Origin: a virus
Taxonomy: Duplodnaviria > Heunggongvirae > Uroviricota > Caudoviricetes
Direction: 5' to 3' (one strand)
IMG/VR virus record: IMGVR_UViG_3300030434_000006
Span: 955-64,954 of that record
Length of the DNA: 64,000 bases
Part shown: piece after piece, positions 16,505 to 33,978 of the stretch
Position numbering within the stretch: position 1 is the stretch's first letter
Layout: the number at the start of each line of letters is the position of its first letter
Program-made: the position numbers and the translations under genes
Notes under the pieces: generated by a model
Databases searched by the model: none
The model's input: only the letters and a program-made list of their open reading frames with translations
Told to the model about the DNA's origin: nothing

Positions 16505-16722
16505 GTCGGGATTGGAACCCCGAACGAATGTACGAGGAGGCACTTAGTGCCTCCGGCGCTACCACGTCTGGAGTTTGCCAGATGTTTCAATGGTGGCGTT
16601 GGCGGGGCTACCTTCGGGTAGGCCGGTCTCCTCGTACGCCGGTAGTTCCAACCCTGTCAACGTCACCACCCGGAGATTGGAACCTCCCGTAGTGACGCTT
16701 CCTTTTGTACGAGGAGCACTCC
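16505..16722 (+). promoter_or_regulatory. repeat-rich leader with a W/R-rich small upstream ORF
   Basis: three copies (two direct, one inverted) of GATTGGAACC..GTACGAGGAG; the SD of the gene at 16723 lies inside the third copy and is complementary to the inverted copy CTCCTCGTAC; uORF at 16582..16692 begins MFQWWRWRGYLRV. Confidence 0.4.
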
Positions 16723-28363: not shown

Positions 28364-28384
28364 AATCTAAGAAAACTCTTAGAC
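28364..28384 (+). repeat. 21-bp element AATCTAAGAAAACTCTTAGAC (left copy of a perfect inverted repeat; internally palindromic)
   Basis: exact reverse complement found at 29754..29774. Confidence 0.85.
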
Positions 28385-28441: not shown

Positions 28442-29731
28442 ATGACTACACTCGCTCCACTCCAGCAGCTGCAAAATCTCCCTGTATGCAACGTCGATGA
28501 CGATGTTCTGCACCAGGCGTTTGTCACCGCTTACAGCCAGCTTAATTCCATCCGTAAACGCCTGACGCTTGATGACCTGGAGCTGCGCCTCCTTGATAAC
28601 TGCACGAACGCTCTGGAGCAGATCCAGATCGATATCGGCATGCGGCTCAATCATGAGGCTGATACCTACAACCTGCTATTAGACACACTGGAGCAGGTAC
28701 AGCAGCAGCTGGGTGCGCAGTCCGCACTGGTCAACGAAGTAACGAAAATTCGTCTCGATGCCGAGAGCGCCATTGAAGAGGCCCGTGAGTCGGCTACTCA
28801 GCGAGTGCTGGAGGCGGACAACCGCGTAATCAATGCAGAGAATCAGCTTGAGGGTATCAGGTCTGCCCTGACCACCGCGCAGCTGGCGTTTACCTCTGTC
28901 TCACAGGAATATGAACAGTATCGCCGCAAGAATCCTGAGCGCCTGGCGCGAGACCTGAATGAGCGTGACAAAACCATTTCACAGCAGCGCGCCGATCGCA
29001 AAAAAGACAGCCTTAAGCGGCAGGAGCTACAGAGCAAACTCAATATCGCGGATAAGGTTGTCGGAGAAGAGCGCCGCCAGCGCGCCGCAACAGCCAATGA
29101 CCTGATGAAGACGACCGCTCTTTATAACCACCTGAAGGAACGCGTTGAATTTCATGATGGCCGGGAAGATGTGCAGCAGTTCCTTCTTCAGCTGCCGGAT
29201 GGCTCTGGCGACGTGGGCTGCTACATCTACAACTTCCACTTTGGCCTGAGCGTTTTCCACGGTGTCCGGGATGTGTCTATCGAGACGGCTGATTTCCACT
29301 TCCAGATCCGTACCGCGATGATGCTGGCAATGGACGTGGTGCCGGGGATATGGGGCAACCCGGTCTTCCGCCTGCTGCCTGAGCTTGCGCCGATGTGGGA
29401 CACGGCTATCAATGACGAGCTGCACACACGGATCATGAAGCGTCTGGCGCAGGATTTCCCGCGTCTTCACCAACGCATTCTTGACGGCAAGGCTGCGCCT
29501 GTTTCCGAGCTGGCCATACCGACACGCCTCCTTAACGTTCTGACAAAGGCCGGGTATGAGACGGTTGCAGATGCTGGTGGTGAGTTACCTGACGAGCTGG
29601 CAAAAGTGAGGGGGCTGAGTGAGGCCTCAGTCAATGATATTCGTGCTGCCGTGAACAGCTGGTGCATAAAGTGGGCGCAGGCGAACGGCGACATTGAGAA
29701 CATCAGAAACCCCAAAGTAAAACGCCGCTAA
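28442..29731 (+). CDS. coiled-coil protein with C-terminal RNAP alpha-CTD-like helix-hairpin-helix domain
   Basis: 429 aa; long Q/E/R-rich heptad region; C-terminal IPTRLLNVLTKAGYETVADAGGELPDELAKVRGLSEASVNDIRAAV parallels the RpoA CTD (RSANCLKAEAIHYIGDL...LGKKSLTEIKDVL). Confidence 0.4.
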   Translation: MTTLAPLQQLQNLPVCNVDDDVLHQAFVTAYSQLNSIRKRLTLDDLELRLLDNCTNALEQIQIDIGMRLNHEADTYNLLLDTLEQVQQQLGAQSALVNEVTKIRLDAESAIEEARESATQRVLEADNRVINAENQLEGIRSALTTAQLAFTSVSQEYEQYRRKNPERLARDLNERDKTISQQRADRKKDSLKRQELQSKLNIADKVVGEERRQRAATANDLMKTTALYNHLKERVEFHDGREDVQQFLLQLPDGSGDVGCYIYNFHFGLSVFHGVRDVSIETADFHFQIRTAMMLAMDVVPGIWGNPVFRLLPELAPMWDTAINDELHTRIMKRLAQDFPRLHQRILDGKAAPVSELAIPTRLLNVLTKAGYETVADAGGELPDELAKVRGLSEASVNDIRAAVNSWCIKWAQANGDIENIRNPKVKRR

Positions 29732-29753
29732 CCCCTCCCTTCATGCTTTGAAA

Positions 29754-29774
29754 GTCTAAGAGTTTTCTTAGATT
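29754..29774 (+). repeat. 21-bp element GTCTAAGAGTTTTCTTAGATT (right copy, inverted)
   Basis: perfect reverse complement of 28364..28384. Confidence 0.85.
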
Positions 29775-29956
29775 TTCATTGCTTCATTACTCCGTATTGT
29801 GTACATTCCTCCCCGCTGACAAGAGCTTTACGGCTCCGTGCAAAAATCATAATAGGCATTTGGCGGATTACTCATAACTGTCTGTTTAATCCGCTCTTTT
29901 TTCACAAATCAGAGTCTATTCCAGAGTAGGCTTTGCTGTGTGTAGTAGGGTTTTTG

Positions 29957-29982
29957 GCCCGGTAGTTTCCGGGCTTTTTTTT
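29957..29982 (+). terminator. rho-independent terminator
   Basis: gcccgg-tagttt-ccgggc followed by T8. Confidence 0.7.
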
Positions 29983-30160
29983 CAGGTTCAGCCGTGAGTG
30001 CATCAGGGTGTGCTGACGGCTGAAACGGGGAAAACGCTTTAGCAAGCGAGGCAAACGCACTGCAAATCTGGCGAGGTTTCCTGACCTCATACGTGACGCA
30101 AGCGGACAGGTTGACCAGATACCTAAGTGTCCGCGCCGGGTATGCACCGGCAAGTATTCA

Positions 30161-30224
30161 GCAGGTTTAGCTCAGTCGGTAGAGTGTTCCATTGTCGGCG
30201 GTTCAATTCCGTCAACCTGCACCA
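30161..30224 (+). pseudogene. truncated tRNA-like element (acceptor, D-arm and T-arm present; no anticodon arm)
   Basis: 7-bp acceptor GCAGGTT/AACCTGC, D-arm TAGCTCAGTCGGTAGAGT, T-arm GGCGG-TTCAATT-CCGTC, then ACCA; only 11 nt where the anticodon arm should be. Confidence 0.35.
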
Positions 30225-30396
30225 GTTCGTAACGGGCCGCCCCCGGTTATTAGCTTTTTCCGGGTGTGTTATGAGTAGGGTGAACGGCAAGTAGCCCCTC
30301 CTGTCATGGCAGTGAACGCGGTTGATGGACTAATCCCGCGCATAGAACGCCCCATGAGGCTTAAACACGTTCCCGCCTGATCCTCGTAAGGGATCA

Positions 30397-30478
30397 CCAT
30401 TTGTGAGCGCGCTGGTACATCTGACGTTTTACCTGGCGTTTGGCGAAAGATTACCTCTTACAGCGTGCTCACAAATGG
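30397..30478 (+). other. long imperfect hairpin (18-bp arms CCATTTGTGAGCGCGCTG / CAGCGTGCTCACAAATGG) inside the ORF-free GC-rich region
   Basis: 17/18 complementary arms with a 46-nt loop; further long-range complementarity at 30701/30766. Confidence 0.4.
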
Positions 30479-31174
30479 GGGAATGCGGCTATGCGCACGC
30501 GGGACGGAACAGTTACCTGACGTTTTGCAAATTCCTTTACATGACCCGTCCGTAGATTCCGTATCGGACAGCTGGTGGCACCAGCCCCCCATGCGCTACA
30601 CGTCAACACCAGGCGGTGCCCTGTTTACTGGCTAATTTGGCTGGTGGCGGGGCAGGGTATCGGCAGGCCTCAACACGCCGTGGCTGCTGGGAAAGACCAG
30701 CCCACAACGGCGAGGACATTGAAGGGTGACTTAAACGAGCACCCGGCGCGTGGTTGATCAGTGTTCTCGGCCGTTGTGGTGATCGCTTTAACACACCGTA
30801 GGAGTTGTGGATCCGGAATCCACGGGGCGGAAGCCTTGCCTGTGAATTAACACGGGCGGTCAGCGATGGGCTGCGAAAGCAAAGCGGGTTTAAGTCCCGC
30901 CTCAGTGAACAATCGCGTTAACGGGAAACGGTCACCGCAACTCTATTGAACCCGGCCAGTAACGACAAGCCAGCGATCCCTGCTGGTGGCTGAAAGTGGG
31001 GCATTTGGGACATGTGGGTGCGGAGCCTGGGCGTTTTATTTCCTTTTCGTCTATTTGGTTATCCGGTCAACACAGAATGTGCCAGCCAGCGGGATAACGT
31101 CATTGCAGGTTGAGCGCCTGGGCGATTAGTTCTGACAGCTGGAAGAGACAGCATTCCTCCACAAAGGACGCATT

Positions 31175-31303
31175 ATGTCGTTATCAGAGTTTGCTGCAGA
31201 GCACCCATTTCTCACCGTGATTTACGCGCTGGTGGCCATCTATGGCATTGAGACGTTTGTAAAAGCATGGCGAAGTGGGTTGAAAAGAAAACGTCGTCGG
31301 TAG
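31175..31303 (+). CDS. small membrane peptide (42 aa), not in the ORF track
   Basis: MSLSEFAAEHPFLTVIYALVAIYGIETFVKAWRSGLKRKRRR; SD AAGGA; one TM helix and a basic tail. Confidence 0.3.
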   Translation: MSLSEFAAEHPFLTVIYALVAIYGIETFVKAWRSGLKRKRRR

Positions 31304-32423: not shown

Positions 32424-33163
32424 TGATTCAGGGCTTCTCCGGAAGCCCGATACTTCACAACAGGTAATAGCATTGGCGTGACAGCCTCATAAGCTAATCC
32501 ATGCAGCCGACGGATAATCCCCAGTCGATCCGTTCAGTGCTATTTCCGTTGTGGTGCATTCGCAGTTGCTGCTGCGATCGCAAGACTGGCCCCCGCTTCT
32601 TCAGTCGCGTACACAGGGGTTAAAGCCGCCAGTAACCAGGTTGACCAGTCACTTGAGAGGTTATTTGCCGGGTATGGCACCGGCCACCACTAACGCTTTG
32701 CCTGATATATCAGGCATCATCAGTGACCATACAGTCAGTTTATCCGGATGCAGAGCGCATGAGTGACAGCACTTACACAAAGACCATCAGAGCCATGCAG
32801 TTTGTCATGTTTCACTGTCTGCTTAATGCCGGACTGTTTGCCGGTCACAAATGGCTTATCGCGCAGCTGGTTGCGGGGTGAGACAGGACAACAGGTAAGA
32901 GCGCCAGCAATGTGCTTTTACCGTTGTGTTGTCGCTTAAAGGAAGCAACCGCCGTTCCATGTAACAGCCGTAAGGCCTGATGGGGACAGACGGACGGTAG
33001 CCGGTTCGAATCCGGTCAGCACAATGCCATTACAGCCACCCGGCCACGCGCCGGCGCAGGCTTCAAATTATCGCCGTGCGTATCCCACGCCGGATTTAAC
33101 CAGGTGAACTTTAATCACCGGCGCCTGCCGGGGATTCTGCACGCCTGCAGGAAGAGAAAACGC

Positions 33164-33393: not shown

Positions 33394-33978
33394 ATGATGA
33401 CCGCTCAACAATTAAATGCAACGATCGCCATGATTGCAGACGCAGAAGCCGACTATGCAGGCGATTACATGGCGCTGCTGGCTGTCATTGCCCGCTTGGG
33501 ATACACCATTACAGAGACGTCTGAGACCAAAACTGACGGATACGCAGCCGTTATCAGCAAAAGCGGCCTGACTATGACCGGTTTTGGCGAAACCCTGAAC
33601 CACGCCGCCTGTGCCGCGCTGATTAAGCTGAATGATCTTATCCTGCGCAACGAAGCGATGATTGATACCGGTGAACTGAGTTTCAGGCAGGAGCAAGCAC
33701 CGCTGGCCGTCGCGCAGCTGTGGCTGTCTGAGGGCTGCAAAGTGGCGAGGGCAACATGGGGGAAGGGCGTTCATCTGCGCCTCACCAGAGGGCTGACACG
33801 CGCAGCACTGAATGGATCAGACATGTATGGCGTACCGGCCCGCTACTTTGATTGCAGCCAGGATGTGGCCGTAACGCAGATGCCCCAGCTTTTGCTCATT
33901 GATACCGAAAAGCTAACGGTTTCCGACTGGGCGCCAGCCTCAACAGATCTTCTCGCAAGCGACTGGAGGCTGGTGTAG
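33394..33978 (+). CDS. two-domain protein with C-terminal DUF2829/Tad2-like domain
   Basis: 194 aa; EGCKVARATWGKGVHLRL and SDWAPASTDLLASDWRLV resemble Tad2 motifs QGKKVARKGWNGKGMYL and PWLASQTDLLAEDWEIV (recalled). Confidence 0.4.
   Translation: MMTAQQLNATIAMIADAEADYAGDYMALLAVIARLGYTITETSETKTDGYAAVISKSGLTMTGFGETLNHAACAALIKLNDLILRNEAMIDTGELSFRQEQAPLAVAQLWLSEGCKVARATWGKGVHLRLTRGLTRAALNGSDMYGVPARYFDCSQDVAVTQMPQLLLIDTEKLTVSDWAPASTDLLASDWRLV

Follow-up and report, generated by a model that had tools for sequence, protein, structure and literature searches.

Islands of small RNAs (sRNAs) and tRNAs are known from phage genomes but are poorly annotated; examples are the P1 ban leader, the dicBF operon and the late leaders of Stx phages. 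The annotation of the P1 ban leader (GenBank AF234172) comprises Oban (a C1 operator) and Pban, a 'dicF-like region', tRNA-Asn, tRNA-Thr, tciABC, trnI and ban. DicF is part of a polycistronic transcript, from which RNase E and RNase III release it (PMC5069750). In plant mitochondria, degenerate tRNAs termed t-elements, which mimic the acceptor stem and T arm, serve as RNase P and RNase Z cleavage signals in longer transcripts; the t-element of A. thaliana nad6 lacks the anticodon arm, and the precursor of the P1/P7 C4 RNA is an RNase P substrate (PMC5499578). Our literature search turned up no bacterial or phage equivalent of t-elements. The mascRNA/MALAT1 and MHV68 tRNA-miRNA transcripts follow the same processing-signal logic. 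Here, we describe an RNA island in the gap between two genes (29732-31174) of a tailed phage-plasmid. The sequence studied, referred to as the window, is the whole stretch of 64,000 nucleotides that corresponds to positions 955 to 64,954 of IMG/VR record IMGVR_UViG_3300030434_000006 (Caudoviricetes). The island is a + strand non-coding mosaic of small structured RNA modules that shuffle independently, and not a single large RNA. Two of its components have been under-described: a conserved, allelic tRNA body without an anticodon arm and an unannotated RNA module of 105 nt.

Twenty-five syntenic loci were gathered via the protein encoded upstream of the gap. Together with plasmid matches and the window they gave an alignment of 23 distinct sequences; individual relatives are named by locus handle (L001 and so on) where they have to be told apart. 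In 22 related phage-plasmid sequences from Pantoea/Enterobacter, the core of the island (29957-30941) has 75-99% identity to the window; this conserved block is contiguous with sharp ends at 29957 and 30941. In all relatives the core terminus lies at ~30941-30947. The least conserved part of the region is 29732-29956, and the 210 nt adjoining the peptide gene on the other side are also among its least conserved stretches. The gap contains short open reading frames (ORFs) only, none of which is kept across the 23 aligned sequences. Variable sites are distributed over the codon phases as 148/150/162, codon periodicity is absent and indels are mostly 1-2 nt long. The lack of a conserved ORF, the flat phase distribution and the small indels rule out a protein-coding or pseudogene reading, in agreement with a first-pass annotation of the sequence that had described the region as ORF-free. 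That annotation had also called the region GC-rich, which holds in comparison with the downstream genes (0.40-0.48) but not with the upstream gene (0.54-0.59, versus 0.52-0.58 in the region). The terminator that it took as a bracket of the region (29956-29983) lies inside it and marks the start of the conserved core. In public annotations, the whole 1.2 kb of the island is left blank.

Fourteen helices were picked by conserved pairing. When these are read as + strand, they comprise 2043 Watson-Crick, 224 G·U and 9 A·C cells, and the preponderance of G·U over A·C identifies the molecule under selection as RNA from the + strand. DNA hairpins or a minus-strand RNA were considered and rejected, because A·C would be expected where G·U is seen and because folding is asymmetric between the strands: 29984-30941 folds with -388.9 kcal/mol (z=-4.1) on the + strand and with -347.3 kcal/mol (z=-2.1) on the - strand, a difference of 41.6 kcal/mol in favor of the former. 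RNAalifold on the alignment of 23 sequences yielded ~25 local hairpins in which both partners of some pairs had changed; the few long-range helices it predicted had zero compensatory support. This covariation analysis bears out the earlier proposal of a non-coding RNA whose structure is conserved in relatives. The idea of one or more large structured RNAs, put forward at the same time, fares differently: no long-range helix is supported, the order of modules differs between relatives, and tRNA is the only Rfam family that passes its threshold in the region.

The match to the tRNA family falls on the following element:

30161-30224, + strand: tRNA-like element without anticodon arm (allele A), 64 nt, with a 7-bp acceptor stem, D arm, 11-nt linker, T arm and ACCA

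The Rfam tRNA model (RF00005) scores 47.4 bits at 30161-30221 (+) (gathering score 29, E=2.4e-8) and aligns the anticodon arm as a deletion. In this arm 3 nt stand for 15 model positions, and the element therefore does not qualify as a decoding tRNA. It possesses an acceptor stem, a D arm with GG, a T arm with a UUC loop and a discriminator followed by CCA, and its minimum-free-energy fold contains an acceptor stem of 7 bp, a D stem of 4 bp, a T stem of 5 bp and a 3' ACCA, which confirms what had been noticed at first reading of the sequence. ARAGORN called no tRNA anywhere in the 64-kb window, and besides this tRNA match the only Rfam family above threshold in the window is C4, which lies elsewhere. 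As no canonical tRNA is left in the window, the tRNA body has outlived its decoding function.

Both known occupants of this position derive from tRNA genes. Between allele A and P1 tRNA-Thr, the alignment has one gap, of 12 nt, which falls inside the anticodon stem-loop. In about half of the relatives it is replaced by allele B, an unrelated 73-nt element that has GCAUGGG/CCCAUGC as its acceptor stem and a D arm of class-II type and lacks an anticodon stem. Aligned to an 86-nt aberrant tRNA of D6-like E. coli/Leclercia plasmids, allele B also has a 12-nt gap, in the same alignment columns as that of allele A. The two alleles share G1-C72, C2-G71, A3-U70, A73 and CCA. Pairing in the acceptor, D and T stems amounts to 97-98% within each allele, and each of the two has one compensatory pair. 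Different alleles occur despite 95-99% identical flanks in three backgrounds (L003/L023, L001/L010 and window/L008). Because the alleles differ between near-identical plasmids, the slot must exchange cassettes repeatedly. Allele A is 87.5% identical to the window copy in L003 and 90.6% in L024, while the values for the core are 81.5% and 83.5%, respectively.

Further unusual tRNA bodies occur in relatives. Just after the end of the core, L003 (3979-4062), L023 (6512-6595), L024 (6521-6604) and L032 (6458-6541) contain an aberrant tRNA-like element of 84 nt, in which the anticodon arm is longer by 9-11 nt; L024 and L032 additionally retain a homologue of the window from 30968 onward. In other relatives the junction at the core end is broken by an inserted segment with TerB and DUF3927 genes. 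tRNA bodies of 105 nt with a 35-nt insert are present in L003 (5851-5955) and L024 (7415-7519), and one of 130 nt in L007 (4301-4430). The window has none of these 84-nt, 105-nt and 130-nt forms. A pattern search of viral sequences, for the common D arm at a distance of 6-18 nt from the T loop, recovered the same architecture, an armless tRNA whose acceptor, D and T arms are intact, in nine further distinct sequences; these are located on 10 contigs, some within phage tRNA arrays and some standing alone.

Around the tRNA-like element, the gap and its 3' border are made up of the following features:

29755-29772, not strand-specific: perfect palindrome TCTAAGA-N4-TCTTAGA, candidate operator, with a second perfect copy at 28366-28383, 5' of the pmgS-like gene

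29795-29822, + strand: block GTATTGTGTACATTCCTCCCCGCTGAC, strongly conserved in the alignment within the otherwise variable left part

29863-29900, + strand: terminator-like hairpin, a 9-bp stem and then CUCUUUUUUC, 4 pairs changed on both sides

29901-29983, + strand: small-RNA-like unit with an 11-bp hairpin (29910-29935), the 14-mer UUGCUGUGUGUAGU (29933-29946) and an intrinsic terminator (29956-29983)

29987-30024, + strand: hairpin of 9+7 bp, 3 compensatory pairs

30073-30088, + strand: short hairpin of variable sequence, 5 bp, 4 of them compensatory

30102-30134, + strand: hairpin whose 7-bp stem varies and whose 19-nt loop, GGUUGACCA-N4-CYURAGU, is conserved; homologous to the DicF-upstream hairpin of Qin and to the P1 'dicF-like region'

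30135-30151, + strand: invariant hairpin GCCGG-GUAUGCA-CCGGC, with a near-copy after a second hairpin at ~32669

30225-30278, + strand: linker AGUUCGUAACGGG, conserved in the alignment, and a small hairpin (30242-30264)

30279-30396, + strand: module with the highest conservation (97-99% in the family), with the predicted stems CAYGG/CCRUG, CGCGG/CCGCG and AGGC/GCCU plus a 3' hairpin

30397-30478, + strand: 18-bp hairpin, arms 30397-30414/30461-30478, 94% complementary; 395 Watson-Crick, 18 G·U and 1 A·C cells in homologues

30479-30502, + strand: motif GAAUGCGGCUAUGCGCACGCGG, common to the segment after DicF in Qin and to the start of STnc100-like matches in P1 and D6

30502-30701, + strand: further hairpins at 30502-30551, 30617-30654 and 30686-30701 (loop GAAAGA, stem CUGG/CCAG)

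30703-30778, + strand: long interrupted hairpin of 8+11 bp, arms 30703-30721/30759-30778, 5 compensatory pairs

30779-30941, + strand: 3' portion of the core, with hairpins at 30806-30824, 30837-30858 and 30884-30900

30942-31151, + strand: variable segment, missing in L001 and L002

31175-31303, + strand: gene for a membrane peptide of 42 aa with a basic tail, from the ORF list

Two of these structures had been spotted before. The hairpin with 18-bp arms at 30397/30461 was recognized correctly and covaries in homologues. The complementary 13-mers at 30701/30766 are real and covary as well, but they form part of a larger hairpin of ~19 bp (30703-30721/30759-30778). For the hairpin at 30102-30134, 12 distinct versions were compared: 94% of the cells are paired, pairs have changed on both sides at 4 of the 7 positions, none of 500 shuffles reaches the observed score, and pairing amounts to 29-43% in a control in which the register was slid. 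The module at 30279-30396 (~105 nt) recurs in D6-like plasmids and in the early-left leaders of lambdoid prophages and belongs to no Rfam family. Over 13 diverse copies, 54 of 107 alignment columns are invariant, and because so little varies its predicted stems contain only three compensatory pairs. The lambdoid copies lie directly 3' of a DicA/CI-type repressor gene and 5' of an RprA-like terminator, ~180 nt after a good pL-like promoter (TTGCCA-17-TATAGT, read by eye). The hairpin at 30073-30088, compared over 30073-30097, exists in two sequence types whose distribution is independent of that of the tRNA-like alleles, a sign that modules recombine frequently.

The same mosaic is evident from the comparison with more distant relatives. 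Enterobacter, Leclercia and E. coli plasmids keep the synteny, the pmgS-like gene being followed by 1.2-1.7 kb without annotation, but these gaps share individual modules only, and in changed order. In phage D6 the same gap, again after a pmgS-like gene, holds tRNA-Asn, tRNA-Thr and tRNA-Ser, and this D6 stretch is 95% identical to the P1 ban operon leader over 990 nt. Taken together with the modules common to the window and the ban leader and with the alignment of allele A to P1 tRNA-Thr, this synteny means that the first-pass suggestion of a degenerate tRNA cluster came close. In the Qin dicBF operon of E. coli K-12, the counterpart of the window hairpin 30102-30134 sits 33 nt upstream of DicF. 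In the window, too, the hairpin with the GGUUGACCA...CYURAGU loop stands 5' of a small-RNA slot. Judged by the two conserved flanking features, the slot is filled by DicF in Qin, by a short RNA with a terminator in P1 and by the tRNA-like element in the window, where Rfam gives no match to DicF itself. What these sequence similarities best support is that the island is of a known kind, the RNA/tRNA island of phage early operons, which also makes up the leader of ban in P1, of dicBF in the Qin prophage of E. coli and of lambdoid early-left operons.

With slightly better than even confidence, we interpret the tRNA-like element as a non-decoding tRNA 'top half' that is kept as an RNase P-type processing signal or as a stable small RNA within a multi-sRNA transcript. 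The islands of P1 and D6 contain real tRNAs whereas none is canonical here, which suggests that the property retained is recognition by the tRNA-processing machinery. According to this model, the island of the Pantoea P1/D6-like phage-plasmid would be transcribed as one or a few long + strand RNAs, and the top half, i.e., acceptor stem, T arm, D/T elbow and ACCA, would be recognized by RNase P and the tRNA 3'-end enzymes. The CCA-adding enzyme may also be part of the machinery for which the tRNA body supplies recognition features. RNase P-type cleavage at the element would separate the flanking, more strongly conserved RNA modules, and the element itself could be freed as a stable non-decoding RNA of ~64 nt.

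A number of observations weigh against such a processing role. Covariation within the alleles is weak, with 15 of 500 and 62 of 500 shuffles reaching the observed score for the two alleles. Conserved tRNA features are broken in individual copies: the D-loop GG is changed to GC in L012, AUCA takes the place of ACCA in L024 and L026, the T stem of L029 has a mismatch and the copy in L032 is clearly degenerate. Enterobacter, Leclercia and E. coli relatives have the neighboring modules and a slot without any tRNA-like element, which is therefore not essential to the island. In addition, a sigma-70 consensus scan predicted no promoter, and with two intrinsic terminators (29863-29900 and 29956-29983) upstream of the core, its transcription requires read-through or an unrecognized promoter. 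All of these points except the last are also what makes the main rival explanation worth considering, namely that the element is a dead tRNA-Thr pseudogene, a functionless hitch-hiker between two strongly selected RNA modules. Its origin from a tRNA by deletion and the stronger conservation of its flanks fit this explanation as well. Nevertheless, we regard it as unlikely. Two unrelated tRNA bodies lack the same 12 nt and both have perfect acceptor and T arms and ACCA, they have been swapped between near-identical plasmids in three backgrounds, and their stems have stayed paired to the extent given above. Furthermore, allele A is conserved above the core average over the same lineages. A decaying pseudogene region, which the first-pass annotation had named as the outcome that would overturn its proposal, is likewise at odds with a tRNA-like element that shows at least core-average conservation for the same locus pairs.

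The polymorphism can also be read in a different way. As a free-standing mini-tRNA, the element could act as a decoy or competitor for a host or defense factor that reads acceptor stem, T arm and elbow, or it could be an aminoacylatable RNA that acts outside translation, the alleles being specificity variants. The presence of different alleles in near-identical backgrounds, the positions common to both (G1-C72, C2-G71, A3-U70, A73 and CCA) and the recurrence of armless tRNAs in unrelated phages, some of them inside tRNA arrays, are compatible with this. We deem it quite improbable, since no evidence of a partner protein, a defense system or a synthetase was found and the common first three acceptor pairs may merely mark a recombination junction. 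Still less probable is that the whole core of ~960 nt (29984-30941) constitutes one large ornate GOLLD- or ROOL-style RNA of which the tRNA-like element would be a domain. GOLLD and ROOL are often phage-borne and located beside tRNAs, and contiguous conservation with sharp ends in 22 homologous sequences as well as the z-score of -4.1 for the fold would suit such a molecule. However, its long-range helices are without compensatory support, modules occur separately and reordered in Enterobacter, E. coli, P1 and Qin, internal cassettes assort independently, and Rfam searches for GOLLD, ROOL and group I/II introns returned nothing but a chance-level group II fragment of 11.3 bits. Finally, we give hardly any credence to an RNA antitoxin for the 42-aa membrane peptide, i.e., a type I toxin-antitoxin system, or to a DNA element such as an origin or single-strand initiation site, although a small hydrophobic peptide gene lies 3' of the island and the region is rich in hairpins. 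G·U pairing on the + strand only argues against DNA hairpins and minus-strand RNA, no iterons were found in the region, and the 210 nt next to the peptide gene are poorly conserved. A processed RNA antitoxin had been offered in the first-pass annotation; the structural signal is all on the + strand, the same as the peptide gene, no antisense overlap with that gene was found, and none of the repeats of the region turned out to be complementary to 31175-31303.

If the element is indeed a processing signal, the survival of such tRNA bodies after the loss of decoding would be explained. If, on the other hand, its alleles are specificity variants, a tRNA-shaped ligand would take part in phage-host conflict. 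More generally, and only as a tentative suggestion that may well prove wrong, tailed phages could carry a selected class of non-decoding 'tRNA bodies' with the anticodon arm removed or remodeled, which would act as RNase P-dependent punctuation of sRNA operons or, more provocatively, as allele-specific decoys or ligands for host or defense proteins that read acceptor stem and elbow. Irrespective of the tRNA-like element, a new RNA family may be represented by the 105-nt module at 30279-30396, a concrete candidate in which half of the positions are invariant from P1-like plasmids to the early leaders of lambdoid prophages.

The left part of the gap differs from the core. In the Pantoea set, the half-sites of the palindrome at 29755-29772 are conserved and its 4-nt spacer is variable; no P1 C1-type operator exists in the window. 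The conserved block at 29795-29822 is possibly a promoter -10 and start region. The segment 29863-29900 is deleted in L009. The unit at 29901-29983 contains 7 compensatory pairs, and its 14-mer UUGCUGUGUGUAGU matches the core of the host sRNA RprA exactly. With the RprA model (RF00034) the unit reaches 25.7 bits (E=0.43, gathering score 70) and is thus not a member of the family. It resembles RprA in that the 14-nt core is followed by an intrinsic terminator; it differs in an unrelated 5' part, and the 14-mer is not kept in more distant relatives. RprA-like copies in Enterobacter phage-plasmids score 63.4 bits, just below the Rfam threshold of 70. RprA-like 3' halves (AUUGCUGUGUGUAGUCUUUGCCC... 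plus terminator) are also present in phage-plasmid and lambdoid leaders (L005/L007 3894-3996, L034 5265-5318, L114 and L146), where they are possible mimics of host sRNAs. Matches to RprA, STnc100, YrlA and tmRNA-like families are sub-threshold or absent in Rfam searches with E up to 5-10.

The window represents a P1-family phage-plasmid, as deduced from a C4 antisense RNA, the late-promoter activator Lpa, an ORF of 2289 aa in the position of darB and a terminase region. The C4 RNA is of the P1/P7 immI type (81.8 bits at 16586-16673, +, Rfam), and genes syntenic to the 2289-aa ORF are annotated as SNF2-related or darB-like in relatives. Close relatives of the RNA region were encountered only in non-mobilizable Pantoea plasmids of ~90 kb and in one record labeled Acinetobacter; at megablast level GenBank phages contain no near relative of it. 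The gene 5' of the gap (28442-29731) encodes a protein of 429 aa with an RNA-polymerase alpha-CTD domain, which is the counterpart of the PmgS-like head-morphogenesis/scaffold gene product of phage D6 (25% identity). On the 3' side, small ORFs similar to that for the 42-aa peptide follow the island in related plasmids: membrane peptides of ~40 aa with a Lys/Arg-rich C-terminal tail are encoded at 31175-31303 in the window, at ~4650-4778 in L005 and at ~4445-4563 in L035. The 42-aa peptide matches no Pfam family, and P1 TciB was rejected as its kin since the two do not align. Further downstream (33394-33978) lies the gene for a protein of 194 aa with a C-terminal Tad2-like (Thoeris anti-defense 2) domain, whose relatives are named 'MW1434 family type I TA system toxin' by NCBI.

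Some of the hairpin types recur outside the island. Hairpins of the form stem-GGGAAAGACC-stem, with a boxB-like GAAAGA loop, occur ~7 times in the lambdoid early-left leader L034 (4860-5600) and once in the window (30686-30701), with covariation of the stem; the octamer by itself shows no enrichment there. Enrichment of the motif GGAAAGAC in the window was considered and rejected, as it is not above chance. A second ORF-poor RNA island is located at 32424-33160 (+), 3' of an SPFH gene. It starts with a terminator-like hairpin (32424-32450, by eye) and a long hairpin (32458-32567) with the foot ACAACAGGUAA.../...CCGUUGUGGUG, continues with a second hairpin of the DicF-upstream type (32630-32665) and then GCCGGGUAUGGCACCGGC, and carries a T-arm-like GCCGGTTCGAATCCGGT near 33000. 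In P1 itself (AF234172, L173), the equivalent RNA modules are overlaid by the doubtful minus-strand ORFs plp and upl: between 69472 and 70041 these overlap with + strand RNA modules whose conservation extends to D6 and Enterobacter plasmids and, in part, to lambdoid prophages and numerous other phages, Stx-converting ones among them. The modules include a tRNA-like minihelix, GGUAAGGGUA...UACCCUUACC, and CAACCAGAAGAUAAGCAUCUGG. The ORFs plp and upl may be spurious.

The ban leader of P1 is among the closest known systems. It is also a non-coding stretch of ~1.5 kb on the coding strand in which small-RNA modules and tRNAs are followed by small membrane or Tci-type genes, and it shares with the window the hairpin with the AGGUUGACCA loop and the motif GAAUGCGGCU.AGCGCACGCGG, and its tRNA-Thr aligns to allele A. 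The window island differs in that it follows a pmgS-like gene, as in D6, and not dmt, lacks a C1-type operator and carries a non-decoding body in place of tRNAs; most of the remaining sequence is unrelated as judged by BLAST. The Qin dicBF operon has the conserved hairpin 5' and the motif GGUGAAUGCGGCU.AGCGCACGCGG 3' of its small-RNA slot in common with the window, while the slot is occupied by DicF in one case and by the tRNA-like element in the other. STnc100 and PasD are prophage-borne sRNAs found near tRNAs (bioRxiv 10.64898/2026.05.13.724894). The sub-threshold matches of P1 and D6 to STnc100 (RF02076) begin at the motif that these phages share with window 30479-30502, but the window has no match at E up to 10 (gathering score 47 bits) and only this motif of 22 nt is shared. 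The put RNAs of HK022 lie downstream of early promoters (PMC9378689), and the lambdoid copies of the 105-nt module, ~180 nt 3' of a pL-like promoter, 5' of an intrinsic terminator and beside a repressor gene, are placed similarly. A put-like antiterminator function of the module is a lead based on position only: the module has three to four stems over ~105 nt and put has two over ~70 nt, and in the window it is situated downstream of terminators instead of upstream. Homology to put was rejected on the basis of sequence: the module shows no similarity to the HK022 immunity region, within which putL itself was not located.

A parallel to the tRNA-like element proper is provided by the t-elements. 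Like these, it is a degenerate tRNA with a mimic of acceptor stem and T arm, and it is flanked by conserved + strand RNA. The two are found in different domains of life, and for the window element cleavage is a prediction. Should the element act as proposed, viruses that infect bacteria would make use of the t-element/mascRNA logic, in which a tRNA body is retained solely for recognition by processing enzymes.

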